Below, piece after piece: positions 16,155-40,316 of a DNA stretch of 64,000 nt. The stretch covers positions 1,024-65,023 of the forward strand of contig DAOULQ010000005.1 of the NCBI GenBank assembly GCA_034419095.1, given 5' to 3'. Numbering within the stretch: the stretch's first letter is position 1; the number at the start of each line of letters is the position of its first letter. The notes under the pieces were generated by a model that worked only from the letters and a program-made list of their open reading frames with translations, was not told where the DNA came from and did not search any database. The position numbers and the translations under genes are program-made. Source of the stretch: Anaerolineae bacterium. GTDB lineage: Bacteria; Chloroflexota; Anaerolineae; UBA7937.

Positions 16155-16180
16155 AGCTCGTTGTATCCTGACTGAACATC

Positions 16181-20226: not shown

Positions 20227-20280
20227 CTACTTGCCGTTGTTTACTGCCTCCAACCCTCCCTACTTCCCGAAGACGATTCC
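20227..20280 (-). repeat. R2-1 conserved upstream element (diverged copy)
   Basis: Plus strand reads CTACTTGCCGTTGTTTACTGCCTCCAACCCTCCCTACTTCCCGAAGACGATTCC. It aligns with R2 at 24305-24362. Ends ~10 nt upstream of the PD-(D/E)xK start. Confidence 0.65.
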
Positions 20281-20330
20281 GCTCCGTGTTCATTGCTCTC
20301 ACCCTGCCGCAGAAGAGGCGGGGCCTCGGC

Positions 20331-20400
20331 CACACCCTCACATTCTTTGCCCATTCTGCCACCAGATGCCCAGCCCCTAGCAGTAGGATGATTCCAATCC
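20331..20400 (-). repeat. R1c conserved intergenic element
   Basis: Plus strand reads CACACCCTCACATTCTTTGCCCATTCTGCCACCAGATGCCCAGCCCCTAGCAGTAGGATGATTCCAATCC. Lies just after the stop (20418) of the 1264-aa gene. Confidence 0.8.
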
Positions 20401-20417
20401 CCTTCTGGGCTAAGGGG

Positions 20418-23400
20418 CTAAAAGTCACGTCTTTCTTCTTCAATTCTTGCCCGTTCAATCTGTTGATCCAATGAAGACACGTACTCATCAATCCAGCCCT
20501 TCACACTTTCGTTGTCTTCTCCTTTTTTGAAATCAAGCAATCGTTGTTTTTTCCCTTGATAGTGCAAGCTTCGCGGCCCTGTCCAGCCTTCTGTTGAGAA
20601 GTTTGCCATTAGATTCCGTCGCACATCTTCTCTTGATCCATATCTCGCAAGAACTTCTCTTGCTATACAGATTCTTCCCTCCTCTCGAAAAAGCACTTTA
20701 GGAGCAAAACTGGCTAGGTACCAAGCGCGATTCTCCACATCCTCATCAACCCATTCCCAGATTCTCTCCAAAGGAATCATAGCCAGTGCTCCTTCACTTC
20801 CCGTTTCAAAGAATTGGCCACCTCTTAGCCATTCCTTTATGCCAAACGCTCGTGAATCTATCGGCGGCCCCAGGTATCTTGTCGTCAGAGCCCAGACTTC
20901 TTTTGGGTATCGTCGGGTAATTTCGTTAAGTACAGCTTGAGTGCGCGAGTGGAAACCCTCGACAATTGTGCCCTCTTCTCCGAAATGCTCGAGGATTCTT
21001 TCTCCAAGGTGCAAACCTTTTTCCGGATAGAGTTGGACAAACGCCTTCCCGATTTCCACCCAATTGTAGTCATCCATTTGATCGCGTCTGCCTGCTTCAG
21101 GCTTTTGAAACAATGCTGTGTGCGTCAGAAGTTTCAGGGTTAGTTCTTCTGGCAAAGTGTGCTTGGACTCCTTGGCAAGATAGTGGGAGCGGTACAAATC
21201 CAGTGCAATAGAAGCAGCGTGAGCGTCGGAATCACCAAGTAAGAACTCAATGCAGTTCTTGAAGACATCCTCAGATAGGTCTCGAATAGCACCCCCTAAA
21301 ACAAGCATCCGGAACTGACCAATGCCAATGATACCTTTTTCTGCAAGACCCAGGATACGCAGAGCCGCTTGATCAGAAATTCCCGACCGCCAGGTCAATT
21401 CAGGAACCCAACCGTTCAAGTTTTCATCTTCGGTGAGAGCGTCCAATTGGTCTTCCCATTTCTGTTGATCCTTCTCAAAGAGCGCGCGAAAATACCCCCC
21501 GAGGAAATAGACGCTTGCGCTCTTGCCTGCCCTTCGCTGCGCTTCGAGAAGTATCGGCAAGAGCGAGAAATCCATATCTCTCTTTCCCAGTTCATATCCA
21601 AACCGGTAGCCGTTCTGCGCTTCCGTTGTCAGAAGCCAGTCTAACTCTGGCCGCAGTAGGTCGCTCTTTTCAATTGCTTGTGTGGCCAACTCTTCAATTC
21701 TTGGTTGCGTTTGGTCTACATAGTTGCCTTCCTGGTCAAATCTGTCTTCCAAGAGATCCATGGCCACATAGCGCTCCATAAGCGAGGAAAAATCGCTGCC
21801 GGTAAGGTCGTCTCTGAGTTCTTCCCAACGCTGACGTACTTCTGGCGGCATCTCTTGGCCGTCATAACGTAGAATCTGAACGACCTTAGCGAGTACCTTC
21901 TTGCCATCTACATAGGGTTTTCCTCTTAGTTCGTCCACGGTTTCAATGACCATGTCGGTTAAGTTCAGAATCCTGGCTAACCCTCTCGCGCGCTGGAGAA
22001 GGATGTTGACTGCTTGTTGTTGCTCATCTTCTGGCAGACTATCTAACCGCTTGCATAGCAATTGCCATACTCGCCGGTACCCATCAAATAACTCCCTGTA
22101 TGTTTGTGGCGTCCAAAGCTGAGGCTCCTGTCGCAGTCCTTGCCGTTCAGCACCAATCATCCGGGTGAAAAACTGTGACTCCAATGCCCGATCACAAGCA
22201 CGCAAGGCAAGAAGCCTCCTGTCTTTTGAACTCGACTCAAAGGCTTCCTTGAGAACAGGAAAGCGTTCCTGCGGAGAAGCCTCTGTTGGGGCAACCCGTC
22301 CAGGGCCTAGAGAAAACAGTTCTGCAAAAACGCCACTGGCATTGTTTGACCAGGTTTCGTTTTCTGCCTCTCCGAGGGCTAGAAGCAGCCTTGCTGCATC
22401 CGCAAACAAGTCCCGCCACATTGCGATCTTCTCAAGGGCCCATACTACCTCCCTCCGACCCGTTGTGAATTTCAGAAGATCCTCTTTGCTCCAGGTTCCA
22501 ATTGTGTTCTTCAGACATTCCAATGCTGACCCCGGATCGGCTTCTGAAAGAGCCTGAAAGAACTGTGCGCCCGGGCTTGATCTCAAGTAGTTGCCAGTTC
22601 TGAAAGGGCCCCTTTTGTCCAGAAGCTCTCGACCGATACCAGACGCAACCTCAGACTCAGCCGCATACTTAAACATCTCGTAGAACCACTCAAGCAGTTT
22701 CGGCCGCCAACCTCCGGAGAAATCCTCTAGATCGAATGTGTCGCCGTAGGTATTCCACCACCTAGTCCACAAGTAGATATGGAGTGCTTTGGGTGTGATG
22801 TAGAGCGTATTCTCACCTTGAAGAATCCGCTTCGCCTTCAAATCATGGATGATCTCCTGAAACCTTGGCCAAGTGATCTGAGGGTCCGCCTGTTCAACCA
22901 TCTTGGCTATCGCTTGTGCCTCAGCGACAACTGGCCGTCCATAACCGAACCGCTTGAAAAGCGCAATGTGTTGGAGCACCAGTCGCCTTTGTCGCACCTG
23001 TTGGCTATCTGGATCATCTCCGGCCACAATGTAGCGATTCCATACATCGACAGTAGCGGGAGCTCTTAGCAGATCCTCTGGGTGGTTTTTCAAGTTCCAC
23101 CCGATGACATGGGCAACTCTGGGAGAACCACTGCACAAATCCGCCCACCGGTCTGCCTTGTCTTTGGGAATGCCATACTCTTGAATGATGCTACTTATCT
23201 GTTCTTCTTGTAGCGGCGCCGCATCAAGGTAGGTTATATCGCCAGCAGTCCGATCGTACTCGCTATAGATCGAGACAAGTTTGATCCTCGGACTATGATA
23301 TTGGAGTTTGTTCCAGATATAGGATCTGCTATCTAGATCGCATTCATCGATAACCAGAATAGCGAAGAAAGGATTGTCATCTCTCAGGATCTCATACATT

Positions 23401-24212
23401 AGGTTGCTATCTCTGAACCGGCTCGCGCTGTCACAATAAACAACCAGTGGCTGTAGGTCCTCTGCGCGCGTTGCCTCCAGTACGAGTCTCGTCTTGCCGA
23501 TTCCAGGCTCACCCCATACGTGTATATGAACGGGCGCGCCGTTCTTGCGCAATTCGCTTTGAATACTCAATATGCGGTCTTCTTGTGTCTGACCGATCTT
23601 CAATGGCCTTCTCATCTCGGATTCCCGAGACCAACTTCGATGTGTCTGAAACCCTAGTCCTGTCCGTCCCGTCAATTGCAGCGCCAATGATGGAAATGGC
23701 TTGAGGAACCCAATGAGGGTGTTCTGCCGCCATATCTCGATCTTTGCATCCTTGTACCTACGATCTATATCGGCCAGTTTCCTCTTGAACTTGTCTTTGC
23801 AATAGTCGTCCGTCACGTCTGGATTGTCCCAACCGAACAGTACCACAACCAATGTTCCGTTCTTCTCTAGACATGACTTCACCCTCGGTCTAAGTTCGTC
23901 GGAGCCCTCTCTAAACAAGATGCTTCTGATATCACTCTCTCTGGTCGGAGAGAGGTCACCAGTCTTGATTTGGTAACAAGTTAGGCCTTGTCTAATGATT
24001 CCCTGTCCACCACTAATCTGAACATCTTGTACTTTCCCATCTACGCCACCGTCCGCAACAGTAATTGCACTCGGTACCTCTATGAGATTCTTTCCGATTC
24101 CAAGAGCCGTCCCTTCTGCCCAAAGCAACTCACGGAAAAAGTTCACAGCCTCTTGAGGGCTCAAGCGCTCCAAGTCTTGATTCCTTACTGAGAAAATCGT
24201 GTCCATGCTCAC
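20418..24212 (-). CDS. Avs-like STAND NTPase: Mrr-like PD-(D/E)xK N-terminal domain + P-loop NTPase + long helical-repeat C-terminus
   Basis: 1264 aa. N-terminus FFRELLWAEGTALGIGKNLIEVPSAITVADGGVDGKV...CYQIKTG matches the Mrr-cat pattern (DGGxD ... QxK). Walker A VWGEPGIGKTRLVLE, Walker B ILVIDECD, and ~900 aa of helical repeats. Confidence 0.7.
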   Translation of the reverse strand: MSMDTIFSVRNQDLERLSPQEAVNFFRELLWAEGTALGIGKNLIEVPSAITVADGGVDGKVQDVQISGGQGIIRQGLTCYQIKTGDLSPTRESDIRSILFREGSDELRPRVKSCLEKNGTLVVVLFGWDNPDVTDDYCKDKFKRKLADIDRRYKDAKIEIWRQNTLIGFLKPFPSLALQLTGRTGLGFQTHRSWSRESEMRRPLKIGQTQEDRILSIQSELRKNGAPVHIHVWGEPGIGKTRLVLEATRAEDLQPLVVYCDSASRFRDSNLMYEILRDDNPFFAILVIDECDLDSRSYIWNKLQYHSPRIKLVSIYSEYDRTAGDITYLDAAPLQEEQISSIIQEYGIPKDKADRWADLCSGSPRVAHVIGWNLKNHPEDLLRAPATVDVWNRYIVAGDDPDSQQVRQRRLVLQHIALFKRFGYGRPVVAEAQAIAKMVEQADPQITWPRFQEIIHDLKAKRILQGENTLYITPKALHIYLWTRWWNTYGDTFDLEDFSGGWRPKLLEWFYEMFKYAAESEVASGIGRELLDKRGPFRTGNYLRSSPGAQFFQALSEADPGSALECLKNTIGTWSKEDLLKFTTGRREVVWALEKIAMWRDLFADAARLLLALGEAENETWSNNASGVFAELFSLGPGRVAPTEASPQERFPVLKEAFESSSKDRRLLALRACDRALESQFFTRMIGAERQGLRQEPQLWTPQTYRELFDGYRRVWQLLCKRLDSLPEDEQQQAVNILLQRARGLARILNLTDMVIETVDELRGKPYVDGKKVLAKVVQILRYDGQEMPPEVRQRWEELRDDLTGSDFSSLMERYVAMDLLEDRFDQEGNYVDQTQPRIEELATQAIEKSDLLRPELDWLLTTEAQNGYRFGYELGKRDMDFSLLPILLEAQRRAGKSASVYFLGGYFRALFEKDQQKWEDQLDALTEDENLNGWVPELTWRSGISDQAALRILGLAEKGIIGIGQFRMLVLGGAIRDLSEDVFKNCIEFLLGDSDAHAASIALDLYRSHYLAKESKHTLPEELTLKLLTHTALFQKPEAGRRDQMDDYNWVEIGKAFVQLYPEKGLHLGERILEHFGEEGTIVEGFHSRTQAVLNEITRRYPKEVWALTTRYLGPPIDSRAFGIKEWLRGGQFFETGSEGALAMIPLERIWEWVDEDVENRAWYLASFAPKVLFREEGRICIAREVLARYGSREDVRRNLMANFSTEGWTGPRSLHYQGKKQRLLDFKKGEDNESVKGWIDEYVSSLDQQIERARIEEERRDF

Positions 24213-24304
24213 GTCATCTCCTAGCCTCTTCTCATCGTCCTCGACTCTGCGCTAACACAGAACACGGACCGATGACTCCACCCAAACATGCCACGCGCCA
24301 CCTG

Positions 24305-24362
24305 CCAAACCACTTACTGAGTACTGCCTCCTATGCTCCCTTCCCGAATAGACCACTACCCC
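24305..24362 (-). repeat. R2-2 conserved upstream element
   Basis: Plus strand reads CCAAACCACTTACTGAGTACTGCCTCCTATGCTCCCTTCCCGAATAGACCACTACCCC. Lies ~93 nt upstream of the Avs-like start and overlaps the stop codon of the CI-like repressor gene. Confidence 0.8.
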
Positions 24363-25051
24363 TTCATCTTCGCTCTATACGATCCCACTGCGACACCCAG
24401 CACCCGCGCATCTTTCAATCGGAGGATGGGATAACCCTGATTGCCGGCCTGCAAGTGGGGCCCCTTCGCATCCTCTTTGTATATCCTCAACACCACGTCC
24501 TCGTCCTTTCGCGCCACGACTACATCACCAGGCTGAGCCTGACGTTTGGCGTCAACGAAGATCACATCCCCATCCAAGATCCGGCGTTCGATCATCGAGT
24601 CTCCCTTGACGCGGAGAGCGTAGGCACCATCTCGCTTCTTGATCTGTTCAACTGAGCAGGGATAGAACTCCTCGGCTTCGTGTTCTTCTTGCCATTCGGG
24701 GTAGGTGGCGGGGACCGTGCCGATCAGCGGCAGGAAGATCCACTTTCCTGAGTAGGGAAAGACCTCCTGAAGGCGCTTCCGTGTTTCTTCAAGCACCTTC
24801 GTTGCCTTGCGAATTTCAGCCTGGATCTGATTGTCGTAGCTTTCGCGGCCAAGCAAATAGTTAATTGACACAGCATAATGATCGGCGATTTTTTCAAGAT
24901 CCTCAACACCGATCCTTCGGCGGCCAGCTTCATATCCGGCTACGGTTGCTTGGCTGTGGCCAAGATGGGCGGCCAGTTCCTGCTGAGTCTCACCGTACCG
25001 TTCTCTAATGTCCCTGATTCGGCTGCCGATAACTTTGAATCTATCCATCAT
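24356..25051 (-). CDS. CI/LexA-like repressor (XRE HTH + S24 self-cleaving peptidase domain)
   Basis: 231 aa. HTH region TQQELAAHLGHSQATVAGYEAGRR. C-terminal S24 motif LRVKGDSMIERRILDGDVIFV...VVARKDEDVVLRIYK. Confidence 0.85.
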   Translation of the reverse strand: MMDRFKVIGSRIRDIRERYGETQQELAAHLGHSQATVAGYEAGRRRIGVEDLEKIADHYAVSINYLLGRESYDNQIQAEIRKATKVLEETRKRLQEVFPYSGKWIFLPLIGTVPATYPEWQEEHEAEEFYPCSVEQIKKRDGAYALRVKGDSMIERRILDGDVIFVDAKRQAQPGDVVVARKDEDVVLRIYKEDAKGPHLQAGNQGYPILRLKDARVLGVAVGSYRAKMKG

Positions 25052-25078
25052 ACGTGCTCCTCACGGAACGTCATACTC

Positions 25079-25084
25079 ATTATA
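25079..25084 (-). promoter_or_regulatory. candidate -10 box (TATAAT on minus strand) for the repressor gene
   Basis: Plus ATTATA is TATAAT on the minus strand, ~25 nt upstream of the ATG. The -35 region is weak (TGTCAA). Confidence 0.35.
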
Positions 25085-25116
25085 GCACAAACTACCAGAT
25101 TTTGACACTAACCCTC

Positions 25117-25145
25117 TTGACAGTTCAATGACATGGTGTTATAAT
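25117..25145 (+). promoter_or_regulatory. consensus sigma-70-type promoter facing rightward (TTGACA-17 nt-TATAAT)
   Basis: TTGACA at 25117-25122, a 17-nt spacer, TATAAT at 25140-25145. Divergent from the repressor gene. Three TGACA(C/G/T) half-site-like words at ~25103, 25118 and 25129. Confidence 0.65.
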
Positions 25146-25194
25146 CTTTATAGCGCTCAGCACTAGCATTTCTTTTGTCTCCAATTAGGACAGT

Positions 25195-25386
25195 ATGTCA
25201 TGCAAATTAGAGCGCAAGGGAATAATGGAGAGTGAAGCTCGCAGGTCCACGGTGGCTTGCATCGTGACCGAGCATGATCAGGCAGTCATTGAAGCGCTGG
25301 GCTTTCTGAGGAGGAGCACCATCAGCGACGTGGTCTATGCCTGGACCAAACTGTTGATTGACGAGGCGGAGAAGGCACGGAAGTGA
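25195..25386 (+). CDS. small ribbon-helix-helix-like protein (Cro/regulator analogue); start may be M11 at 25225
   Basis: 63 aa. The STVACIVTEHDQAVIEALGFLRRSTISDVVYAWTKLLI pattern is strand-helix-helix. First gene downstream of the consensus promoter. Confidence 0.45.
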   Translation: MSCKLERKGIMESEARRSTVACIVTEHDQAVIEALGFLRRSTISDVVYAWTKLLIDEAEKARK

Positions 25387-25694
25387 CCCCGGCTAGACAC
25401 AAGAAAGGCCCTGGCCCAAAGCGTGCCAGGACAGGCGAGCCCTTTCCCCTTGTGGTCCACGGTGGGGACAGGTACCAGTCCCTGGACGAGGCCATGGCTG
25501 CTGGCCTTCCGATCCTGGGGAAGATCATCGCCGACTTGGCACGCAGGGACTGGCGCCCTGCCCCGGTACTTGCCAACCCGGGGAGCCAGGCGAAGGGCAT
25601 AGACGATGGGCAGGAGAAGGAAGGAGTTGGAATCCTTTCTGGAGGTGATGGAAGGTCAGTACCTATAATCCCTGGAGGGGATGGAGAGCTTTGA
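25383..25694 (+). CDS. hypothetical protein (weak call)
   Basis: 103 aa. GTG overlaps the previous stop (GTGA). Gly/Pro-rich with no recognisable motif. Confidence 0.25.
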   Translation: MTPARHKKGPGPKRARTGEPFPLVVHGGDRYQSLDEAMAAGLPILGKIIADLARRDWRPAPVLANPGSQAKGIDDGQEKEGVGILSGGDGRSVPIIPGGDGEL

Positions 25695-26132: not shown

Positions 26133-27185
26133 GTGTCCAAGCAAGGCAAGGCGACGAAGATGTTCCCCGGCTTCCGCAAGCCGACCTACACGATGGTCCC
26201 AGATGAGCTATTCGACGAGCTCCTCGCTGACCTGACAGGATCGGAGCTCAAGGTCTTGCTCTACATCACCCGCCGTACCTTCGGCTTCAAAAAAGAAAGC
26301 GACAACATCTCCCTTAACCAGATGCTCTCGGGCATCCGCACCAAAGACGGCCGGATCCTGGACCGGGGAACGGGTCTTGCCAAGTCCACTCTGGTTTCCG
26401 CCCTCAAGAGCCTGGCAGCCAAGAACATCGTCATGGCTGAGAGGCGCAAGAGCGCTAGGCGCGGCTACGAGCCCACCAACTACCGCCTCAACGTCATCAC
26501 CCCTAGTTCGAAAATCGATCAACCCTTGTCCGAAAGCCCTACCAAGCCCTTGGGTAAGAAAGCGGACATACAACAAACAGTTATACAAGATACAGATGAC
26601 AACAATAGTGTTGTTGCTCTTTTGATGAATAGGGGAATAACCAAGCGCACCGCTGCCAGGCTGGCAAGAGAATACCCTGAAGCTCTGATCAGACAGAAGA
26701 TCGAACTTCTTGACTACTTGCAGGAGACCCAAAGCCCGTTGGTGAGAAAAAACCCAGCTGGCTACCTCAGGCGCGCGATCGAGGAAGACTACAAGCTCCC
26801 TAGAGGCTTCAAGACCAAAGCTGAGAGGGAAGCCGAGGCCCGAGAATGGGAAAAGGCCCAAGGCCGGGCTGAACGCGCCCGGAAGGCCCATCGCGAGAAG
26901 ACTGACCGACGAGGTCAGGCGTTCAAGAGATACGGCACTAGCGAGAGGCTGATCTCTTTGTGGCGGGAAGCCCAACAGAGCCTCCAGGCCAGGCTCACCA
27001 AGGCCACCTATGAGACCTACCTCAAAGATGCCGCCCTGCTTAGCCTTGACAACAGCGTGGCGGTTTTAGGCGTCTCTAACCAGTTTGCCCAGGAATGGAT
27101 TGAGGGCCGGCTTGCCAAGATAATCACGCGGGTGCTGGAGGATATCCTCAAAGAACCCCTTGAGCTGAGGGTGGAAGTCTACTGA
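26133..27185 (+). CDS. replication initiator-like protein (N-terminal wHTH replication-protein module + C-terminal DnaA-domain-I-like module)
   Basis: 350 aa. N-terminus TMVPDELFDELLADLTGSELKVLLYITRRTFGFKKESDNISLNQM is typical of phage/plasmid replication organisers. C-terminus ATYETYLKDAALLSLDNSVAVLGVSNQFAQEWIEGRL resembles DnaA_N. Confidence 0.7.
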   Translation: MSKQGKATKMFPGFRKPTYTMVPDELFDELLADLTGSELKVLLYITRRTFGFKKESDNISLNQMLSGIRTKDGRILDRGTGLAKSTLVSALKSLAAKNIVMAERRKSARRGYEPTNYRLNVITPSSKIDQPLSESPTKPLGKKADIQQTVIQDTDDNNSVVALLMNRGITKRTAARLAREYPEALIRQKIELLDYLQETQSPLVRKNPAGYLRRAIEEDYKLPRGFKTKAEREAEAREWEKAQGRAERARKAHREKTDRRGQAFKRYGTSERLISLWREAQQSLQARLTKATYETYLKDAALLSLDNSVAVLGVSNQFAQEWIEGRLAKIITRVLEDILKEPLELRVEVY

Positions 27186-27836: not shown

Positions 27837-28733
27837 TCACGACGGCAGGCTCAAGCCTTTCCGGATGGCTTCAAAGAGATCTTTCCGTCGTTGATACGGA
27901 TCCCTTGCCAACCTTACTTCATCGGGCGATAGATCACGGAGAAAGCGATAGCCCTCCATACACCGTGCAATGACAGTTTCACTCTCAGGTCGACGATCCC
28001 TGCGAATCAACCGTGTCAGGTCACCCCATTCGTAACGGCCCGACCGGATGTTGGCGAAGAACCGATCAGGGTCGAAGGGGTCTCCCACTAACCAGCATTT
28101 GAGGACAGCCACAGTCCGTACTAGGTTGCGATCGAAGGGCATCTGCTGAAACTGGAACAGATCGTAGACATCTCGCGCCGTGGTCCGTTGATACGAAGCC
28201 CTGATCTTCTCGGCAACGATTTCCTCGAAGTGCAAGGTGGTGACCGACGGCGGCTCGATCTCCAACTGCTTGAAATAGGCGTCAACGATCAGGGGCAAGG
28301 TCTGTATTCCTAGGACGGGCTCCTCTCGCAGGCTGACATCAAAGGCAAACTGTGCCGATGGGTTCCACGCGTGGAAGTAGCTCACCCTTGCCCCACAGGC
28401 CTGGCGATCCTCGCGGACGTAGAAGTCTTCGGTCCTAACCGAAAAGGTGATGCCGTAATACGCCTTTCCATCGAAGAGGCCGGCGATGGCCAGGATCAGA
28501 TCTTCGGGGTCGGAGATCTCCGGGGCGGTGAAGTCCAGATCCTCGGAGAACCGCCCAGCCCGCCCCAAGAAAACCTTGCGCATGCAGGTTCCCCCTTTGA
28601 AGATCAACCGCTGCAGCAACCCTCCATCGGCCAGGATGCGCAGAACGTAGGTCAGAACCACATCCCGCTCGGCCACAGGAAGGATCACGCCAGAGCCCCT
28701 GGCGAATAGATCGGCGAACTTCTGCTCCAGCAC
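27837..28733 (-). CDS. AbiEii/AbiGii-family nucleotidyltransferase toxin
   Basis: 298 aa. LIFKGGTCMRKVF...RFSEDLDFT nucleotidyltransferase motifs. GTG start 1 nt after the AbiEi stop. Confidence 0.85.
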   Translation of the reverse strand: MLEQKFADLFARGSGVILPVAERDVVLTYVLRILADGGLLQRLIFKGGTCMRKVFLGRAGRFSEDLDFTAPEISDPEDLILAIAGLFDGKAYYGITFSVRTEDFYVREDRQACGARVSYFHAWNPSAQFAFDVSLREEPVLGIQTLPLIVDAYFKQLEIEPPSVTTLHFEEIVAEKIRASYQRTTARDVYDLFQFQQMPFDRNLVRTVAVLKCWLVGDPFDPDRFFANIRSGRYEWGDLTRLIRRDRRPESETVIARCMEGYRFLRDLSPDEVRLARDPYQRRKDLFEAIRKGLSLPS

Positions 28734-28734
28734 C

Positions 28735-29556: not shown

Positions 29557-29679
29557 TTTTGAACCACCTTTGTTGTTTGTCTTAAATCGAGTTACTATTT
29601 CAGTAACATCATGCAATATGCTTAACCAATTATATCGCCACCTCCCTCTGTTTGCAAGCCCGCAAGGCAAGGGGTTGTG

Positions 29680-29900
29680 CTCACCAGTCAACGCCTGGCT
29701 CACCTTGCGTAAGTGTTGCTCCCCAGGCTGCCCTCCCCTGCCCTGCCTGTCCTGGCGCTTGACAGGCCAGGGGCACGTGGCAGGCCAGGGACCCTGTCGG
29801 CCTGTCCCGGTACTTGTCAGGCCGGGGGTTCGGCCCAGTCCTGGCGGAAGTGGGCCAGGGGACAGGGCGTGGCAGAGCAGGCAGGACAGGCAGAGAGGAG
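29680..29900. repeat. REP-like cluster (GCCAGGGG / TGTCCTGGC word family)
   Basis: Read directly: ...CCTGTCCTGGCGCTTGACAGGCCAGGGGCACGTGGCAGGCCAGGGACCCTGTCGGCCTGTCCCGG...GGGCCAGGGGACAGGGCG... The same words occur at 11330-11380 and 1428-1790. Confidence 0.7.
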
Positions 29901-31533: not shown

Positions 31534-32415
31534 TAGATTTCTCCTATTAGGATTCGATTGACGATAATAACCGCCGAAATGGAATCTAACCGCGCCACAT
31601 GCGGACTCACCCGAATGATGCCAGAAGAGATTGCGCGTGTCAACCGTTACCACTGGCCGGTTGTTTGTCAAACCACCATTAGGCGAAGAAAACGCCCGCG
31701 CGCGGCGACTTTTCCTACCACTAAAGATCGTCAAATTGGTAGTTTGACGAGCGTATTCTCGCCATACTACAAGAGGCTGCCGCCCGAAATCCAGCCCTAG
31801 CTCATCACGAGCGATCTTTTCCTCAAAGACACCTTGGAGTCTTGCAAATCAATATACATGACCACCGAGGGGATGCCAGAAGAGAAGAGGAAATGCTGAG
31901 ATTGACAAGGTAGATGGATATGTATAGCCATGATCGATATGTCCTACCAATAGAGCATCATCATGAGCTTTACCGTGCACTGGACTTCGAAAACCTGATG
32001 CTGGGTTCTTTAGCTAGTGGAAGATGGAGAGGATCACCAGGCGAAGGGACGGCTATCGGTCGAGGAAAGGAGGGGTGTAGTGGGTGTGAGTGGTAATTAG
32101 ATACTATGAGTCTCACCCCTGCTGGGGCTTCTGATTACCCATTTCCTGCAAGGGAGGCATCGCATCTCGCCCCCTCCCGAAGCATCATACGAAATTTACG
32201 CCGCAAAACCCGTTCACAGCGTTGGAGTACCAGAGAGCAACCTATGACCCTGTGGATTCCATAAGAAGAGGTGAGGTGTTTGGGTTGACAAGGGAAATGG
32301 GTATCTATACCCATCATGGATGTATCTTCCCAGGAAAGAATCATTGGAGGTCTTGTAAGGCACTGGGCTTCCACGGTCCAACGTTGTGTTCTGGGGTGAA
32401 TACAGGACGGAGAGC

Positions 32416-32772
32416 CTGGCTGTGCATTCCGCAGAAAGATGGGTTACCTTTCGAGCTGGAACTGTGCCTGGCGTGATCTCTCCAACGCAGTGTGATTGAG
32501 AAGCAAAGGGACAAGGATTCAGGGCGAGAAGATCGAATCTTGTGTTGGCGAAATCTATGCTGAGGCTGTGCGCAAGAAGCTTGTAAGGGTGACCCCGAAG
32601 GTCGCGTTCTGCCTGTTACTTGTGTGAACACCGAACGGACCTAAAAACGATAGGTGTTTGACCTTTACAATCGACACCAGTCTACCACGTGGCCGCAAGA
32701 CTCGCAAGAAGCAAGGCGTAGAAGCAGGAGCCAAGAGTCGCTCCTCTTTCATATGTCAGGAAATGAGCGCAG
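32416..32772 (+). repeat. conserved non-coding leader, copy 1 (paralogue of 46371-46798)
   Basis: The first ~150 nt (CTGGCTGTGCATTCCGCAGAAAGATGG...GGCGAAATCTAT) are ~90+% identical by eye to 46371-46515. More similar blocks follow (CTAAAAACGATAGG..TTGACCTT.ACAATCGA...GTCTACCA.GTG, and a GGAGCC...GCTCC hairpin before the start codon). Confidence 0.8.
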
Positions 32773-33253
32773 ATGAGTGAGGAAGACCTGAAGGTAGTTG
32801 GGGAACTCTTCGACAAGGCAAAGGAGAAGTCTGAGCGGGACGGCTACCTGACACCAGTTCTCTTCGCCTGGGCACCCTGTGGGCGCCTGACAATCAGCTT
32901 CATTGAGGGCAATCTGCGCAACATCTTGCCAAGTACGTGCCACACGCTACGGCTCTCGGGCTATGATAGGTTCGCCCTGATAATCGAGGGGTGGATCGTT
33001 CTGGGAGAAGAGAACCTCCAAAGACATCGAAAGCTGGGTAGGAAGGATGCAAGAGCAGCCAAAGGTACAAACCTCTATCCAGATCATCTTTGTTAGCCCA
33101 GAAGAGACCTTTGGCAAGTTTGCCATCTATGATGAGACCCAGGGCGGTTGGGTTCTGCTCAAAGAAGTAGAAAGCACGCCAGATTGGAGCCTCGCTGGTG
33201 TCTTGATAGATGCCACAAAGGGAGGCGTAGATCGAGAACACAAAGAGGAATAA
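32773..33253 (+). pseudogene. frameshifted paralogue of the 159-aa protein at 48059-48538
   Basis: ORFs 32773-33096 and 33047-33253 together align to the whole 159-aa protein. There is one extra C at ~33018-33019 (AACCTCCAAAGAC versus AACCTCAAAGAC). Confidence 0.8.
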
Positions 33254-33289
33254 GGGATCTTTCAGAAGCAGAACCCAACAAGGCAGAGC

Positions 33290-33500
33290 GTGAGAACAGG
33301 AAAAGGCTAACGAACCCCCTCCGTCCTCACTCGAACCCATAAACCAGCCTTATCACCGTATCAGAGCCTCTCTCACCCGTTCTCTCAGGCGATTCTTGGG
33401 GGTAGACAGGAGCCATGGGGCCAGGTGTGATCTCAAGGGTCTAAGCGGGTCTTCATATGATCTTATGCCTAGAAAGAACGTGGCAATGGGAGGGCAGACG
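33290..33500 (+). repeat. R3 dispersed repeat, copy 1 (intact, shows the empty IS110 target)
   Basis: ...CCGTCCTCACTCGAACCCATAAACC...CTCTCTCACCCGTTCTCTCAGGCGATTCTTGGGGGTAG...GTGATCTCAAGGGTCTAAGCGGGTCTT... aligns with 60840-60914 + 62596-62775 and with 59830-60085. Confidence 0.75.
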
Positions 33501-33722: not shown

Positions 33723-36700
33723 TCATGATCGTTTGGCTTCAGGGAAGACGACATACGTGCCATCCTCGACTATCCTTCCATCATTGAGTAGCTCCATGAC
33801 AATATGGTCTACAACAGCGTTCATGTCACTCGTAGTACGCTTGAACCCAAATAGTTTGCATACTTCATTCGGAATCATTTCGCGCTGTATCCCATAAGAG
33901 GCTCCGACAACCTTCGATATCGCTAATTCAATCTCTTCTGGCGCTATCAAGCGAATATGTCGTGATGCATTGGGCAGGCCTGATCTTGAACGAAGCTTCG
34001 GCTGCTTCATACCCGGTCGCCAGAGGAACGGTCCCCTTCCAATTACGAAACCCTCATCAATAGCAGCTCTCAAACCCAGCTCAAAGGTTGTCCGAATTCG
34101 CCTTCCAATTCGCTTAACCCCTGCGCAGTTCGCAATCCGTCTGGCCACTTCGTCCTGGTGAACAGGGCTTTCAGTATCAACCACGTCTTTGATCCAAGCG
34201 GCCATTCGGCGCCGCGAAACTTCATGCAACTGCTCTCTGTAGTATAAGGTAATGTTCGGCTTCGCTGTCTTGTATGGCTCAGAATCAAGGGCAGGTCTTT
34301 TGGCCATTCCTGGCTTGTGCCTCTCGATTGGTGGTGCTCGTTGAACGTGACTGTGTGGCGAACTCATTTCGGACTGCGCCTCAGATGCGCGGTGTCCCTT
34401 GGCTGCCTCAATGCCTTTTTCTAGTCGCTGCATCTCTCGTCCAGGATTGCGAAACCAATCCGTGCTCCAAATTCGATGAATCTGCCAGCCTAAGTTTTCT
34501 AGCACTTCTTGTCGTAGACGATCTCGATCTCGGGCTGACCTTGCGCTGTGGTAGGTTGCGCCATCGCATTCAATGCCAAGCAAGTACCTTCCCGGTTGGT
34601 CCTCATCAACAATCGCGAGATCAATGAAGAACCCTCCGGTTCCAACCTGATGTTCCACTCGATGGCCCAATTGCCTTAGTCTGGCTGAGACAGCTTCTTC
34701 AAACGGGGATTCGACCTCTCCTCCAGAAGGTATAGGAATATCAAGATAACCTGTGTCGGCGTATTTCAGGAATCTCTTCAAGACTTCAACACCTCTAGCT
34801 CTTGTCTTACCTAGGTCTATGTCGTCGGCCTTTAGATTCGTGAATACTTCGCATCGCTTTCGAGCCCTTGTGATTAGGACGTTTAGTCGACGTTCTCCCC
34901 CCTCATGATTCAGCGGACCGAAATTCATGCTCACTCGACCGTCGCTAGTTCGTCCATAGCCCACACTTATGAAAATCACGTCACGCTCATCACCCTGAAC
35001 GTTTTCTAGATTCTTGACGAAGAACGGCTCTTCCGGATGGCTACGGAAGAATTCCTCGCAGGATACATCCTGGCGCCGACCTATCTCAAGTTGGTCCCGA
35101 ATAGCCTCTGTTTGGCTAATACTAAAAGCAGCTACTCCTAACGTAAGGTCAGGGGAGGTTTTTGCGTGGCGCATGATCGCCTCGGCAACCTTCTTGGCTT
35201 CTCCTAGATTTTTGCGACTCTTTCCTCGGTCATACTCCGTATTAGGCAGATAATGATAGAAAAGCCCCACTTCTCTCTTGCCCTTGTCAGGACTAGGGAA
35301 TACAACTAACTTGTTGTGATAAAACTCGTAGTTGGAAACGGTAATCAAGGATTCATGTTGGCTCCTGTAGTGCCAACGAAGCATTCTTTGAGGGATTCCT
35401 TGAGCGACAGATAGACCCAATATGCTCTCAAGGTTGACTGGTTCGCTCTCAGAGTAATCCTCATCCACATCGATCACAGTTTCAAAAAAAGGTGTCGGAG
35501 GGAGTTGGCGATCATCTCCAACAACCACCACCTGCGTTCCTCTCAAGATCGCGCCAAACGCATCAACAGGTTTCACCTGACTCGCCTCGTCAAAGATGAC
35601 CATATCGAAATCTACTGTGTCGGGGGGCAAGAACTTGGCAATCGAAAGTGGGCTCATCATAAAGACCGGCTTCACGACTTGGATGACGTTCCCGGCCTCC
35701 TGCATCAGTTTCCTGATCGGTCTATGACGCCGTTTCTTTGCGAACTCATAATACAGGACACCAAGCTGACCACTAGCTCGATGTTTGGGTAAGGTCTTCC
35801 AATGGTCATAGGCTAGTTGAACACGATTCTGGTCTAGTAATCTCGTATCCAATTCGCAAAACTTCCTCATGGAGAGTTCATGGATTTCACCATCGAAATC
35901 CCGCAATATCGGACGCTCTACCCATGCTCTTTCAAGCAACATGCTTAACCATGTATGTTGGAGGAGATCAACAAGGTGGCGGTGTGCAAGCGGCCATGAA
36001 AGTGAGGTTTCTACAACGCTCTCAAGACCTGTCTCATCTAATTGGCGTGCTAGGCCCCTCAGCGCTATGATTTCTTGTAAACGGTCTAGCTCATTTAGCC
36101 AGTTCTTGAGATGGTTGTCCTGCTCCTTCAAAGGAAGGTCGATGAGCGTCTTGCCCTCTCCAAATCTCATCGACTGATCAAGTTCAAGGCTTTCGATTGC
36201 TTCTTGAGTTGCATTCTCGTGCCCTGCAAGCTTGCTTCTCAATTGAGCGTTCTCTTGTTCAAGGACCGATGAGCCGGCCAAGGTGGCGACGAAGTCTACA
36301 ATCTGAGTTGGCAGTTCGCCTTCATTGATCTTCCTGTGCAATCCTGCAAGCCAACTCGAAATGCCAATTAACTCTTCCCAGTTTGATTGGACGCCTCGCC
36401 ATCTTGCACCAAAGAGATCGCTTGCTTCTTCATTGAAATCTTCTACAGTAGGGGTTAACCTATTGACTTCGAGGATTGCATCAAGAATCTCAAGCTGGCG
36501 GTCGCTGGACTTCGGCAGATCCTTCGTGCAAAGATCGGCCAGTCTTGTCTTAGCTTCCCGGTAACTCCTCGATAGTGTGCGCCACCACTTTGGCCCATAA
36601 TGAGCAATCAAGCCACGGAGCTCCAGGACGTCCTCATCCCATGACTCATCTCTTACGATCTTGTCGTACACGTCGTGCAGGCACTTGATCCTGTGGCCAG

Positions 36701-38510
36701 CTTCTAGGGTCCTCTCAATTTCACTCGCTTTTGCTCCCCAGACTTCTGAATCAACTTTCACCCTCTCCAAATTCGGGGCACTCAAGACAAAATGCGACGT
36801 CTCTAGCATAGTCTTGATCTCAGCTGTTGATGCTGCCTCAGGCAGAAGCAGGAGTTCAGAGACTTCTCTCGAATTGTATCGAAGATCATCAAGTGATTGT
36901 ACTGCATTTGATAACTGCTCTCGAATATGATCCTTCTTGGCCGGAAGGAGGATAGAAACTTGACTTCCCCAAAAAGGGTGGTCAACAGGTCGTCCGATTT
37001 TGTTTATGAAAAGCTGAAGCTCCTCGACCAAGGACAGATTCTCATGGACTTCTTCACTTGTCCAAGTATCCACCGCGCTTATCTCGAGCTTAGGGAGTTC
37101 TATCCCGGAAAGAATCTCTTTGATTTGGATTAGACGACCATATACTTCATAGGGTGTTAATCTACTATCGCCAATCTCTGCATTTACCGCTTTGCTATAG
37201 CCATTCAACCTGGCCTGATGCCGTATCAACTGCTTTGTGTCAACAGGCGCGCCAAGCTTGGGTTGACCCAGTTCTAAGGATCGCTTCAGTTCATCTAGCA
37301 CGATTCTTTTCTTTGTCTTTTGGCTATGCAGTTCTAGGCATGCGTCTCCGAGGCCTACTTGATCCAACCGACGCTTGACTACTTCAAGTGCTGCCATTTT
37401 CTCTGACACAAACAGGACGGTTTTCTCATGACCAATCGCTTCCGCGATTAGGTTGGTTATCGTCTGCGATTTTCCTGTGCCTGGCGGGCCTTGGATGACC
37501 AAATTCCGCCCCTTATTGACTTCGAGAATGGCCAGTATCTGCGAGCTATCCGCATCGACAACATGATGGATTTCTTCTGGAGAGACGTGCGTATCGATCT
37601 CGATTTCATCATTGAATTCCAGCCTGGATCCATCGAACCCATCAAGTGATAGTAGGCTGCGTAGAATTGGATGTCTTTCTGGCCTTGATTCCTCTGACCA
37701 ATTGTTCGAATCAAGATCGTTGAACATCAAGAACTTGCCAAAGGAGAAGAAGCCCAGGGCAACCGCCTTCGTATCCACTTCCCATCTTGGATAATCCCCA
37801 ATCGCCTTTGATATCTCTTGAAAATATGAATTGATGTCGATGTCCTCCGCCTCAGGGAATTCCGGGAGCTTGATCCCAAAATCCGATTGGAGTTTCGCTC
37901 GTAGCGATAGATTCTCGTCAATATCGTCCCCCGAATACCGAACGCGAAATCTCGACCGCACGTTCGATCGGCTAGGCTCAACAGGGACAAGGATAAGCGG
38001 GGCCTTGCGGACATCATCGCTTGATGGAGACTCATACCAATGAAGCATGCCAAGAGCCAGGAATAGTATGTTCACACCCTGCTCTTCTATATAAGTGCGC
38101 GCGGCGTAGTACGTATTCAGTAGACGTCTTTGAAGTGCTTGCGATATATACGGGCTTTGTAGCTTATTATCCATGTGTCGAAGGGCAATTCCGTTCTCAT
38201 CTTCCTCCGGCTGTCCCAAACCTTCGATGATGATGTCTTGCTCCTCTCGAAACAGGGCCTGTTGATTACCCTTCTCTTGTTCTTCCTCAGGGATCGACAA
38301 GAAGGACATTGAACGTCCTTCATTCACCAGAATCCGAAATACTTCGGTGGGAAGCTCATCGATAATTTCAACACCTTTCGTCTTCAGCGGCCTATAGTTC
38401 AGGAGCTTGTTCCGAAGGCTGAGATCGAGAAGGTCTTTGCGTGCGTCATCGAGCGTTGCTCTAACAGGATCTTCGGTTTCCTCGATTGTGGGTATCTCTT
38501 GCTTCTGCAT
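33723..38510 (-). CDS. Hhe-type giant: DUF4011 + Upf1-like SF1 helicase + Vsr/DUF559 endonuclease + DUF3320-like C-terminus
   Basis: 1595 aa. Helicase motifs VIQGPPGTGKSQTITNLI and MVIFDEASQV, then VGDDRQLPP. Vsr-like fold GIECDGATYHS...RDRDRLRQEVLENLGWQIHRIWSTDW. Confidence 0.85.
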   Translation of the reverse strand: MQKQEIPTIEETEDPVRATLDDARKDLLDLSLRNKLLNYRPLKTKGVEIIDELPTEVFRILVNEGRSMSFLSIPEEEQEKGNQQALFREEQDIIIEGLGQPEEDENGIALRHMDNKLQSPYISQALQRRLLNTYYAARTYIEEQGVNILFLALGMLHWYESPSSDDVRKAPLILVPVEPSRSNVRSRFRVRYSGDDIDENLSLRAKLQSDFGIKLPEFPEAEDIDINSYFQEISKAIGDYPRWEVDTKAVALGFFSFGKFLMFNDLDSNNWSEESRPERHPILRSLLSLDGFDGSRLEFNDEIEIDTHVSPEEIHHVVDADSSQILAILEVNKGRNLVIQGPPGTGKSQTITNLIAEAIGHEKTVLFVSEKMAALEVVKRRLDQVGLGDACLELHSQKTKKRIVLDELKRSLELGQPKLGAPVDTKQLIRHQARLNGYSKAVNAEIGDSRLTPYEVYGRLIQIKEILSGIELPKLEISAVDTWTSEEVHENLSLVEELQLFINKIGRPVDHPFWGSQVSILLPAKKDHIREQLSNAVQSLDDLRYNSREVSELLLLPEAASTAEIKTMLETSHFVLSAPNLERVKVDSEVWGAKASEIERTLEAGHRIKCLHDVYDKIVRDESWDEDVLELRGLIAHYGPKWWRTLSRSYREAKTRLADLCTKDLPKSSDRQLEILDAILEVNRLTPTVEDFNEEASDLFGARWRGVQSNWEELIGISSWLAGLHRKINEGELPTQIVDFVATLAGSSVLEQENAQLRSKLAGHENATQEAIESLELDQSMRFGEGKTLIDLPLKEQDNHLKNWLNELDRLQEIIALRGLARQLDETGLESVVETSLSWPLAHRHLVDLLQHTWLSMLLERAWVERPILRDFDGEIHELSMRKFCELDTRLLDQNRVQLAYDHWKTLPKHRASGQLGVLYYEFAKKRRHRPIRKLMQEAGNVIQVVKPVFMMSPLSIAKFLPPDTVDFDMVIFDEASQVKPVDAFGAILRGTQVVVVGDDRQLPPTPFFETVIDVDEDYSESEPVNLESILGLSVAQGIPQRMLRWHYRSQHESLITVSNYEFYHNKLVVFPSPDKGKREVGLFYHYLPNTEYDRGKSRKNLGEAKKVAEAIMRHAKTSPDLTLGVAAFSISQTEAIRDQLEIGRRQDVSCEEFFRSHPEEPFFVKNLENVQGDERDVIFISVGYGRTSDGRVSMNFGPLNHEGGERRLNVLITRARKRCEVFTNLKADDIDLGKTRARGVEVLKRFLKYADTGYLDIPIPSGGEVESPFEEAVSARLRQLGHRVEHQVGTGGFFIDLAIVDEDQPGRYLLGIECDGATYHSARSARDRDRLRQEVLENLGWQIHRIWSTDWFRNPGREMQRLEKGIEAAKGHRASEAQSEMSSPHSHVQRAPPIERHKPGMAKRPALDSEPYKTAKPNITLYYREQLHEVSRRRMAAWIKDVVDTESPVHQDEVARRIANCAGVKRIGRRIRTTFELGLRAAIDEGFVIGRGPFLWRPGMKQPKLRSRSGLPNASRHIRLIAPEEIELAISKVVGASYGIQREMIPNEVCKLFGFKRTTSDMNAVVDHIVMELLNDGRIVEDGTYVVFPEAKRS

Positions 38511-39023
38511 TGGCTTGGTCCCTGTTGTTACGTTCTCACTATTGCACCCATCTTTGAGCCTGCAACCATGACAGCATACCGAGTAGTTGAGTGCACTCGA
38601 TAAGCCATAGATACAATGCGAAGCGAATGCCGCCTAACTATTCGTGCTGCCGAACCCTTTCGGCCTGGCCGCTCAGTCTTGGTAGATGGAAGAGTTCCAG
38701 CACAGCACCCTCACCGGGGTGCATTGTTTCCACATTTTGCTCATAGAAGCCAAACTCTGAACTCAAACACAAGGCCGACCCCCTCCTAGCATTGGCCAGG
38801 CAGACAGTCGGCTTCACATTCACGCTATCACCTCCCACAACGCTCTATTGCGATGATCCTGCGATGTGAGTGCTTGCCAGGTCTTCTCTTCCCATTCTAC
38901 CATAGCCGCAGGGGCAAATCAATGGGCATAGAACGGTAAGACGCCCTTCCATCCCCTCTGGAACGCGTGAGCGACCAGCCACACCACGCCGCGCCCTCTC
39001 CACACCCTACCGCTCGCCTCTCA

Positions 39024-39081
39024 CCAAACCACTTACTGTCTATTGACGCCTATGCTCCCTTCCCGACTCAACTACGACCCC
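39024..39081 (-). repeat. R2-3 conserved element
   Basis: Plus strand reads CCAAACCACTTACTGTCTATTGACGCCTATGCTCCCTTCCCGACTCAACTACGACCCC. Lies 70 nt downstream of the PIN stop and ~510 nt upstream of the Hhe start. Confidence 0.8.
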
Positions 39082-39151
39082 AAGGATGCACACTGATCGC
39101 AATCGCTTGATTTCAGAAGATCCTCATGTGTTCTGTGTTCTTGTCCAGTTG

Positions 39152-40246
39152 TTACTCGAGCTTCTTGCCGATGGATACGAAGTCAACCGACGTTACTTCG
39201 CTCGTAGCCGGGTCAAAGGTCATCTCTACTTCCATGTCGAGCCATCTTGAGGTACGCACTTCAACATGGTAGCGATCCCAATCATGATCTGGGACCTCAG
39301 GAGCGTCCCGGCCCCTCATTGCATAGTAGTCCGCTCTTGAAACAAGAACGGAGAACTCACATTCTACAGGCACCAGAACATAAAGTAGGAACTCGCCGGA
39401 ATGAAGCTCGCGGACATCCAATACATGGGGGGGCTCTGAGTCTGAAACGCCTGCTAGACGCAATCTCTCGAATGTCGAAGGAAATCCCAGTTTAGCGGGG
39501 TCCCAGCGGGCATCACTCATAGCGTAAGGCAAGCGGCTAACGACGACAGCCACTTCTTTCCACAGATCAAGTCCAGGATATCGGCCGCCCGCAATCCGCT
39601 GGCGTATGTCCTCCAGAGCCTCCATCGTAGGTTTGATATGTTCGTCCACGAATTCCCTTAGGCTGCCAAACAGAACAATTCGACCAGATTGGATGCCTCT
39701 CACCTCCATGTCGGCAACCAAGTCGGGATGGAGATTGCCCTCGTCATCGCAGAAGTCCTGCCTGTTTGCGGAAATGAACCCGATGTCCTGGCCCGGCCTG
39801 GCACCGAGATCGATGACATTTTCCCAGATTAGAGCGTCTCGATAGCCCGCGTCGCCTCGTGAGAAGGGCTTCCTTCGATTTAGTGCGCGCTTAACAATCT
39901 CTTCGTGGGGGATACTGGGGTAGTCCATAATAGTCGCTCCAGCCTGTGCAAATCGAGACGGCAACATTTGGCTGTAGTCTTCGACCAGACTATCAATGTC
40001 GGCATCGGTGAGAGGGGATTCGATCTCCGTACCGCTGAGTCTTCGAGCCTTGTCGAGCGACCCTTCGATTCTGCGCTGGCAATCACGTAGCCTCTCTGCG
40101 TACTTGTTCGTAGTCTCATCGATGACAAGTTTTGGGATGTGGAGCGAGTGATCGGCCCGAGGCAGGCCATCGAACAACACCCGAAATGGGCTACCAGACA
40201 TTGGGAAGTCTTGGCATATAATATTGGTGTCGAGGACTATTCGCAT
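39152..40246 (-). CDS. PIN-like nuclease domain protein (DUF4935-like) with C-terminal unknown domain
   Basis: 364 aa. MRIVLDTNIICQDF (first PIN acidic residue), with later YRDALIWENVI and FISANRQDFCDDEG acidic motifs. Confidence 0.65.
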   Translation of the reverse strand: MRIVLDTNIICQDFPMSGSPFRVLFDGLPRADHSLHIPKLVIDETTNKYAERLRDCQRRIEGSLDKARRLSGTEIESPLTDADIDSLVEDYSQMLPSRFAQAGATIMDYPSIPHEEIVKRALNRRKPFSRGDAGYRDALIWENVIDLGARPGQDIGFISANRQDFCDDEGNLHPDLVADMEVRGIQSGRIVLFGSLREFVDEHIKPTMEALEDIRQRIAGGRYPGLDLWKEVAVVVSRLPYAMSDARWDPAKLGFPSTFERLRLAGVSDSEPPHVLDVRELHSGEFLLYVLVPVECEFSVLVSRADYYAMRGRDAPEVPDHDWDRYHVEVRTSRWLDMEVEMTFDPATSEVTSVDFVSIGKKLE

Positions 40247-40276
40247 GATCTCCTCTTGAGCTACCCTGGCCTATAC

Positions 40277-40316
40277 CTTCTCACCTATGGTCCCTTCCCG
40301 AATAGAGTACCACTCC
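40277..40316 (-). repeat. R2-4 conserved upstream element
   Basis: Plus strand reads CTTCTCACCTATGGTCCCTTCCCGAATAGAGTACCACTCC. Lies ~30 nt upstream of the PIN start. Confidence 0.75.

Follow-up and report, generated by a model that had tools for sequence, protein, structure and literature searches.

The window analysed here is a 64,000-nucleotide (nt) stretch of an Anaerolineae bacterium genome (GenBank assembly GCA_034419095.1, contig DAOULQ010000005.1, positions 1,024 to 65,023). On its minus strand lies an intact repressor gene of the CI/LexA-like type (24356..25051), which encodes 231 amino acids (aa) with an XRE helix-turn-helix (HTH) domain and a Peptidase_S24 domain and ends in …VLGVAVGSYRAKMKG. 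Several unrelated genes on the same strand, some of them recognisable as defence genes, are preceded by a short repeat, R2. A preliminary description of this DNA proposed that R2 is an operator, promoter module or RNA element that coordinates several defence systems. The analysis reported here shows instead that R2 is a coding-derived, 3′-terminal piece of a repressor gene of this XRE-HTH/S24 family and not an intergenic motif.

The genes that follow R2 form a diverse set of cargo, all on the minus strand. Copy A precedes a gene for a 1264-aa STAND/AAA_16-like protein (20418..24212), which has a weak full-length match to PADLOC PD-Lambda-4_A (83.6 bits). Copy D precedes a block (16181..20217) composed of a 220-aa open reading frame (ORF; 19555-20217), for which Pfam and PADLOC gave no match, and a 1098-aa type IIG restriction-modification enzyme (16181-19477), which is a strong match. 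Copies C and B stand in direct orientation on either side of a gene for a 364-aa protein with a PIN_12 domain in Pfam and no PADLOC match (39152..40246). Beyond B lies a 1595-aa DUF4011 helicase-nuclease (33723..38510) that strongly matches PADLOC PDC-S37/Hhe. The order C-PIN-B-Hhe is also found in an independent assembly (Logan SRR14802572, locus L001). The identities first assigned to the repressor, Avs-like/STAND, IIG, PIN and Hhe genes were thus broadly right, but the 220-aa ORF named as 'PD-(D/E)xK' has no family match.

The core TCGGGAAGGGASCATAGG is found with no mismatch in three copies of R2, which all lie on the minus strand: A at 24330-24347, B at 39049-39066 and C at 40284-40301. 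By chance, 0.13 matches to this core would be expected in the window, and 0 of 100 shuffles yielded three. A and B are 78% identical over 72 nt (24291-24362 against 39010-39081). The similarity of C to both consists of the core and ~20 nt upstream, with divergence immediately 3′ of CATAGG. A DNA profile built from A, B and C has these copies as its sole matches in the window (E 1e-17 to 1e-19). Copy D (20227-20280) was missed in the window scans by this profile and by a profile of the repressor protein tail. However, no other stretch of the window outside A, B and C aligns locally with copy A as well as D does: 26/30 aligned positions agree (20242-20271), with one in-frame 3-nt insertion, and the score of 32 exceeds the highest value from 30 shuffles, which was 30. 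D is probably a real but degenerate copy, and its place in the family is less secure than that of the three exact cores, which bear out the existence of the repeat. The distances first reported from element to downstream start (10 nt for D, 93 nt for A, 31 nt for C and 514 nt for B) are correct, and A does overlap the stop codon of the repressor.

Read in gene sense, R2 encodes …GVV(V/L)YSGR(E/D)HR[RQ] and a stop codon. It consists of the last ~10-20 codons of the gene with the stop, and three copies also include ~45-60 nt of 3′ flank. A scan of metagenomes for the exact core returned 33 matches, among which the flanks identify only L020, L027 and L039 as true relatives. The flanks of these three loci contain an open frame that terminates in the core (…KEGQIVGVVVYSGREHR(RQ), then a stop). 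In L020 this frame is an 84-codon ORF (3867-4121) that is 69% identical to the C-terminus of the window repressor and whose upstream part is S24 peptidase sequence, VDAKRQAQPGDIVVARKDEEVVLRIYNRDDKGPYLDAANEGYKRLRLKEGQIVGVVVYSGREHR. The same core closes S24 fragments of ~45-65 codons in L020, L049, L058 and L059, and the proteins P0050 and P0051 have precomputed PF00717 hits. Within the window, a profile of the repressor C-terminus scores 32.1 bits for B, 18.6 for A and 15.6 for C, compared with a maximum of 11.5 in 20 shuffled windows. Variation among copies follows the codon: pairwise differences at codon positions 1, 2 and 3 stand at 115:44:242 (10 copies from seven loci, 13 codons), and the core position previously described as variable G/C falls on the third position of a codon for Glu or Asp (GAG, GAC, GAA). 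The match to the S24 tail and the third-position variation together identify R2 as coding sequence by origin.

Each window copy can be delimited as a relic of a repressor 3′ end on the minus strand. R2-A (24276..24365) encodes GVVVYSGREHRRQ (24362-24321), has lost its stop (TAG to TAC) and continues into ~45 nt of a conserved 3′ flank, here called type I, down to 24276. It begins on the stop codon of the intact repressor (24356-24358) in a different reading frame. R2-B (38989..39111) encodes IKRLRSVCILGVVVESGREHRRQ and a stop (39111-39040), and then type I flank as far as 38989. It is located 41 nt past the PIN stop codon and 514 nt ahead of the Hhe start, and is 84% identical to L039 over 102 nt. 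R2-C (40281..40322) encodes MIGVVLYSGRDHR with a TGA stop and a different, type II flank. It forms the 3′ part of a ~210-nt leader homologous to L027, with the PIN ATG 31 nt downstream. R2-D (20241..20280) is a degenerate relic reading SGSREGWRQ with a TAA stop; the relic ends at 20241, ~24 nt ahead of the ATG of the 220-aa gene, and the element at 20227, 10 nt ahead. A second relic after A and B, such as L039 has, was considered and dropped, as the homology with L039 ends before its second relic. The type I flank (24276-24320 and 38989-39039 in the window; also L027, L039 and L059) is G-rich and contains no promoter and no stable fold. The leader conserved with L027 runs from a strong promoter to PIN (window 40330-40500, L027 1776-1940). 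Directly upstream of R2-C it includes a stretch of ~45 nt, ACAYGGGCTTGTCTGCYCACCTGGCGGGCGAGCCCGTTGTGTTG, that differs at two positions between the window and L027 and has no Rfam match.

The tails of these relics, YSGREHR(RQ), differ from that of the resident repressor, GSYRAKMKG. The four window copies are probably truncated, non-functional relics, each of a repressor allele other than the resident one. P0026 and P0027, which are intact, end in GVVVESRRTHR. Many homologues of the window repressor occur in metagenomes, and they are strongly mosaic; the window repressor is itself chimeric. Its HTH domain is 84% identical to P0026 and 45% to P0002, whereas its S24 domain is 86-95% identical to P0002 and 40-53% to P0026. 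Likewise, P0002 and P0022 have near-identical N-terminal ~100 residues and different S24 domains. Where the repressor stop meets R2-A, the sequence can be read as a 7-nt overlap, GGGGTAG. The resident repressor also has VPATYP where most homologues have VPAGYP, although several homologues likewise lack AG. This position, on our own reading of the alignment, is presumably that of the LexA Ala-Gly self-cleavage site. The repressor may consequently be non-cleavable and the element left 'grounded'.

Relics of this kind recur well beyond the window. In eleven related loci they separate unrelated cargo genes that follow one another after a repressor, and eight of these loci carry at least two copies on the same strand. 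One example is L054, a predicted viral contig of IMG/VR. Its intact repressor overlaps a 389-aa HNH gene by ATGA. The HNH gene is followed by a mini-ORF relic, MKDARILGVVAESRKEYR (7855-7909), which overlaps a LysM gene by ATGA, and the LysM gene by a further relic, …RILGVVVEWRRGSRS, and a DUF2321 gene. Two to four same-strand relics with single unrelated genes between them are found in each of L020, L039, L048, L049/50, L051-53 and L058, and single relics in L027, L045-47 and L059. The 3′ end of a relic is always the gene end, its 5′ extent varies from ~9 to >65 codons, and its allele is unlike the resident intact repressor at the same locus. The proposal, made earlier as a fallback, that R2 marks a cassette boundary is therefore borne out, since repressor 3′-end relics separate successive cargo genes in many independent loci.

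Look-ups of the exact repressor and RecD2 proteins gave no match. The exact motif had 0 matches in viral contigs, where a search for the YSGREHR fragment returned only the L054 contig again and relatives of the PIN gene were not found. Eight single exact matches in genome contigs came from unrelated taxa with unrelated flanks and were set aside as chance. An apparent cassette swap at a relic between L049 and L050 was also discarded; the two differ elsewhere, likely through assembly or strain indels. Two further observations concern the related loci themselves. In L059 (35-912), a YSGREHR relic with type I flank lies ahead of a gene for a Pycsar-effector-like transmembrane (PycTM) domain according to precomputed Pfam, for which PADLOC gave no match. 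In L051 (3251-4621) and L052 (2433-3803), a 185-aa RecA fragment stands back to back with a 194-aa serine-recombinase fragment, and an element of this type may have inserted into recA.

A shared regulatory device would be expected to leave a promoter, an operator or a folded RNA. It is suggested by the position of R2 upstream of four cargo genes in one orientation, by the near-invariance of its 18-nt core and by the repressor gene that adjoins copy A. Against it stands the coding origin of R2, and none of these signatures is present. A promoter scan of the copies found no sigma-70-like promoter in or over any of them, although the organism clearly uses canonical ones: the repressor start is flanked by a 12/12 TTGACA-17-TATAAT promoter with a divergent 10/12 partner. 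These divergent promoters of the immunity region (25079..25145; minus 25108-25079, 10/12 with TG; plus 25117-25145, 12/12 with TG) probably drive transcription of the repressor and of the genes that follow. Other predicted promoters lie outside the repeat, on the minus strand. One, TTGACA-17-TAGAAT (11/12; 40463..40491), is ~150 nt upstream of R2-C and is kept in L027 as TTGACA-17-TACAAT; another, TTGATT-17-TAGAAT (9/12, TG; 38894..38922), is downstream of R2-B, between it and the Hhe gene.

The same holds for binding sites and RNA structure. Repeat analysis of the window reported no inverted repeat or dyad symmetry in R2 and no repeat family linking it to the repressor control region (25040-25330). 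The operator candidates in that region were short repeats only, and a trial motif, AGTATGWCRT, showed no enrichment in the window and does not occur in R2. No Rfam match was obtained in or near R2 at the gathering threshold or at E<=1. Its folds are no more stable than those of shuffled sequences (z -1.56 to +1.19), and alignment folding gave a covariation term of 0.06 kcal/mol, which is no signal. In the relatives, the relics precede genes that mostly belong to no known defence family, such as LysM, TPR, DUF2321 and glycosyltransferase-region genes, and the neighbours in L048 are cell-envelope glycosylation genes. PADLOC gave no match for nine of 10 cargo proteins from related loci, and the match of the remaining one was confined to its HNH domain. 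A common operator, promoter or 5′ untranslated RNA is thus very improbable, and the S24 repressor does not appear to act on R2 in trans, as R2 is unlike its control region (25052-25330). The connection of R2 to the repressor is real but of another kind; by its sequence, R2 appears to be a piece of such a gene and not a binding site for its product. Prediction places neither a promoter nor a terminator in the interval from the repressor to the 1264-aa gene, so coordinated expression would be explained more simply by read-through from the repressor promoter.

We consider R2 relics to be junction scars, left as cargo accreted through recombination between related temperate elements, and place the probability of this explanation as a whole at about 0.65. 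The elements that host this repressor family appear to be temperate, phage-like and integrative, and to carry serine recombinases. Relics would lie where they are found because these elements take up cargo just 3′ of the repressor. We infer that two related elements with different cargo at this site recombine and thereby add new cargo. An out-of-register and partly illegitimate join would connect the cargo end of one element to a point inside the repressor gene of the other, so that each join adds a cassette preceded by a repressor 3′ end of variable length. Selection would retain joins that spare the incoming gene and its ribosome-binding region, which would fix the 3′ boundary of the relic. 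Repeated events would build same-strand arrays of repressor, cargo, relic, cargo and relic, probably read through from the repressor promoter as in lambda cI-rexAB. Once in place, the relics would be direct repeats of 30-120 nt that could serve as patches of homology and support gain, loss and shuffling of cassettes. Such a history would account for the orientation and position of R2, its variable 5′ ends, its coding-type divergence, the allele mismatch and the chimeric repressor. The 7-nt overlap at the R2-A junction also fits it.

Cargo beside a phage repressor is well known. Defence and accessory genes just after the repressor, sharing its promoter, are found in lambda cI-rexAB and in the prophage BTP1, where BstA is encoded downstream of cI, and the region beside the prophage repressor is described as a hotspot of mosaic diversity (PMC8585504). 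In the window, too, a CI-like repressor is followed on its own strand by cargo, defence genes among it, with no predicted promoter or terminator before the first cargo gene. The difference is that loci of the window type stack several cassettes, with a repressor 3′-end relic at each joint. From a search that was not exhaustive, we know of no description of repeated repressor-tail relics at rexAB or BstA loci. In tailed phages, mosaic joints at gene boundaries arise from illegitimate recombination followed by selection. The loci described here share several traits with this mosaicism: joints are placed at gene ends or close to them, the A junction has microhomology, alleles differ across a joint, and repressor domains are shuffled. 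They differ in that the same gene end is left repeatedly and forms a recognisable repeat family across many loci. To our knowledge, such recurring reuse of the tail of one gene as an inter-cassette repeat has not been described.

In some relatives the relics may be more than remnants. An ATGA or GTGA overlap joins the relic to the next gene in L054, L020 (3107), L049/50, L051-53 and L058, and an overlap of this kind is present at L043 too; together with the Shine-Dalgarno-like purine tract of the relic it may couple translation of the next gene. This raises the alternative of a selected, portable expression linker, in which the repressor tail (AAGGGAG/GGAGG) provides a ribosome-binding site, the stop-start overlap provides coupling, and units of leader and gene travel together. 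Complete mini-ORF relics coupled at both ends (L054 7855-7909; L051 9437-9571) are what such a linker would look like. A linker is also favoured by the restriction of the YSGREHR tail to fragments and by a type I flank conserved ahead of different cargo, both of which are taken up below. The window copies do not behave in this way. None of them overlaps a start codon, A and B lie 93 nt and 514 nt from the next start, and A has lost its stop and does not share the frame of the preceding gene. The PIN and 220-aa genes have GGAG-type sites of their own near their ATGs, as read from the sequence, and the third-position variation points to a past as part of an intact gene. The portable linker is therefore a tentative and rather unlikely explanation of R2, and the relics in the window, none of which overlaps a start codon, are most likely inert scars.

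Another alternative starts from the recombinases. The simplest relatives, L043 and L044, have a repressor with the ending GVVVESRRTHR whose stop shares an ATGA with the start codon of a serine recombinase gene, so that this gene abuts sequence equivalent to R2. R2 could thus be a recombination site of an integron-like platform, at which a recombinase inserts and excises circular cassettes of gene plus R2 at the repressor 3′ end. The repeat does occur at every joint of same-strand arrays, its 3′ boundary is constant, and direct copies surround single genes (C-PIN-B in the window, and a gene in L020). The 5′ boundaries, by contrast, are spread over ~9 to >65 codons, the repeat has no dyad symmetry or hairpin, and instead of a constant core between variable arms, the copies show differences mainly at synonymous-type positions. 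Serine integrases act on attP and attB sites that are not identical, and they do not leave long direct repeats. The C-PIN-B unit carries no recombinase, and R2 does not resemble the tRNA genes of the window, which speaks against attachment (att) direct repeats of an integrative island. Finally, the window recombinase is unrelated to that of L043 and is located 11 kb away from R2-A, where the island ends at tRNA-Arg. Taken together, a dedicated recombination site is improbable, clearly more so than a linker.

The comparison with integrons proper leads in the same direction. Arrays with one repeat per cassette in the same orientation (L054, L020, L048, L049, L058 and the window) resemble integrons in being unidirectional series of unrelated, promoterless-looking genes with a recurring repeat and one upstream promoter. 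Integron attC sites, however, are imperfect palindromes that fold as hairpins and are used by a tyrosine integrase, while R2 lacks symmetry, has variable 5′ ends and lies beside serine recombinases. No tyrosine integron integrase was found near R2, only serine recombinases and a 63-aa Phage_integrase fragment in L045. In the mycobacteriophage BPs, integration-dependent immunity relies on an attP inside the repressor gene (PMC4557955). The adjacent repressor and recombinase genes of L043 and L044 and the separation of a repressor 3′ end from the gene body recall this system. The tails here (…RTHR, …RGKP) are not ssrA-like, though, the truncation points vary, and the integrated relative L061 keeps an intact repressor at the apparent prophage end; integration-dependent immunity was discarded as an explanation. 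A third parallel is provided by the promoter-early stem-loop (PeSL) elements of T4-type phages, mobile regulatory cassettes with a sigma-70 promoter and a stem-loop terminator for which mini-circles have been demonstrated (PMC2839356, PMC4122927). PeSL repeats have been proposed as homology for modular shuffling (PMC2839356). Like R2, they are short repeats that separate variable, mostly unknown genes of a plastic region, and a Shine-Dalgarno sequence and a start codon lie at their 3′ edge. R2 differs in having neither promoter nor stem-loop and in its coding origin.

The serine recombinase of the window (Resolvase and Zn_ribbon_recom domains; 11573..13150, minus strand) is intact, and its 3′ end overlaps a tRNA-Arg gene (11562-11638, plus strand). 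Just upstream of it, out of frame, is a relic of the N-terminus (first 17 codons) of an L043-type recombinase, ITVRTVIWAGVSTKEQS (13176..13226, minus strand); L039 and L058 contain the same recombinase start relic, ATGACCCT. The cargo block from 24.3 to 13.2 kb is therefore bracketed by a repressor-end relic, R2-A, and a recombinase-start relic. It holds the 1264-aa gene, the IIG operon, a HATPase gene and two small ORFs. The tRNA-Arg gene belongs to a cluster with tRNA-Phe and tRNA-Pro at 9.8-11.6 kb, which marks the chromosomal edge of the island. R2 has no similarity to any of these three tRNAs, a tRNA-derived repeat was not found, and a search for a tRNA-Arg-derived direct repeat as the far end of the island gave none. 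Beyond the cluster, a T-box leader (103 bits; 9342-9552) precedes a 922-aa ORF (6602-9370).

A second intergenic repeat, here called R1-like, occurs within the same cargo region. Its core, CATCTGGTGGCAGAGTGGGAGAAGGAATGTGAGGGTGTG, is found in minus sense at 13835-13921, 16070-16156 and 20312-20400, and each copy begins 0-25 nt past the stop of the last gene of three successive cargo blocks. Indels disrupt any reading frame that the copies might have in common. The 5′ part resembles the 3′ end of tRNA-Arg (TTCGAATCCTGCTAGGGGC), inverted relative to the tRNA gene, with a nominal p of ~0.005-0.015 over 18 tests, and a profile of the repeat found nothing in related loci. With an R1-like copy and R2-D side by side, the joint at 20.2-20.4 kb is a double-repeat junction.

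Elsewhere in the window, an AbiEi/AbiEii pair (27837-29967) lies on the far side of a phage O-like replication gene (26133-27185) and has no relic ahead of it. An IS110-family transposase gene (60966-62333) is accompanied by end-like repeats at 33313-33453, 59906-59939 and 62600-62663, the first of which, at 33.3-33.45 kb, falls just past the Hhe stop. A partial duplication (32412-33258 against 46367-48543; 78-94% identity) surrounds a spore-photoproduct-lyase-like gene (46763-48034) that the first duplicate lacks, and the two duplicates bracket the Hhe, PIN, RecD2 and HD-domain genes.

Several observations sit uneasily with relics as simple scars of accretion. The exact YSGREHR tail was not found on any intact repressor, and all database proteins that carry it are fragments of 42-84 aa, so this variant may propagate as a fragment and not arise afresh from intact donors. 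The type I flank (~45-60 nt after the stop, TAGACAGTAAGTGGTTTGGTGAGAGGCG…) is conserved in A, B, L027, L039 and L059 with different cargo downstream, which could mean that the flank has a function, and the six core codons are less variable than those immediately upstream. A very short relic directly follows the intact repressor at two independent loci (window A; L020 3081-3107). At two loci a single gene is bracketed by direct relics (the window PIN gene and a 200-aa gene in L020), an arrangement that also fits insertion of a circular cassette by recombination at R2. On comparison, the 200-aa L020 cargo is unrelated to the 220-aa ORF of the window. Neither an empty site nor an alternative cassette was found at an otherwise identical locus, no recombination event was directly observed, and all related loci are metagenomic contigs of uncultured organisms. 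The fragment-only tail, the type I flank, the bracketed genes and the short relics after repressors keep the linker and the integron-like site alive as explanations. They also leave room for a more ambitious reading, in which the tail repeats are working joints of an undescribed cassette-accretion system in temperate phage-like elements, where units of tail leader and gene are captured, stacked and shuffled. The tail would then supply recombination homology, or a site, together with translational coupling. This is speculative and on present evidence unlikely, a little more so than the linker by itself. If true, it would amount to an integron-like platform for cargo expressed in lysogeny, defence genes included, and the occurrence of the YSGREHR tail and its conserved 3′ flank solely as fragments, ahead of different cargo in at least five loci, would stem from a leader that propagates in its own right.

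The explanation preferred here, accretion of cargo with repressor tails left at the joints, removes a tempting but wrong reading of R2 as the master regulatory element of a defence island. What replaces it is evolutionary and testable: within this lineage of temperate elements from uncultured organisms, the site after a CI/LexA-like repressor accumulates cargo, and each addition leaves a relic of the repressor tail. If this is general, a six-frame profile of the repressor tail would mark cassette boundaries and flag cargo genes expressed in lysogeny, most of them without known function and some of them for defence. The distribution of relic lengths could, in turn, tell whether phage cargo arrays grow by illegitimate, homologous or site-specific recombination.

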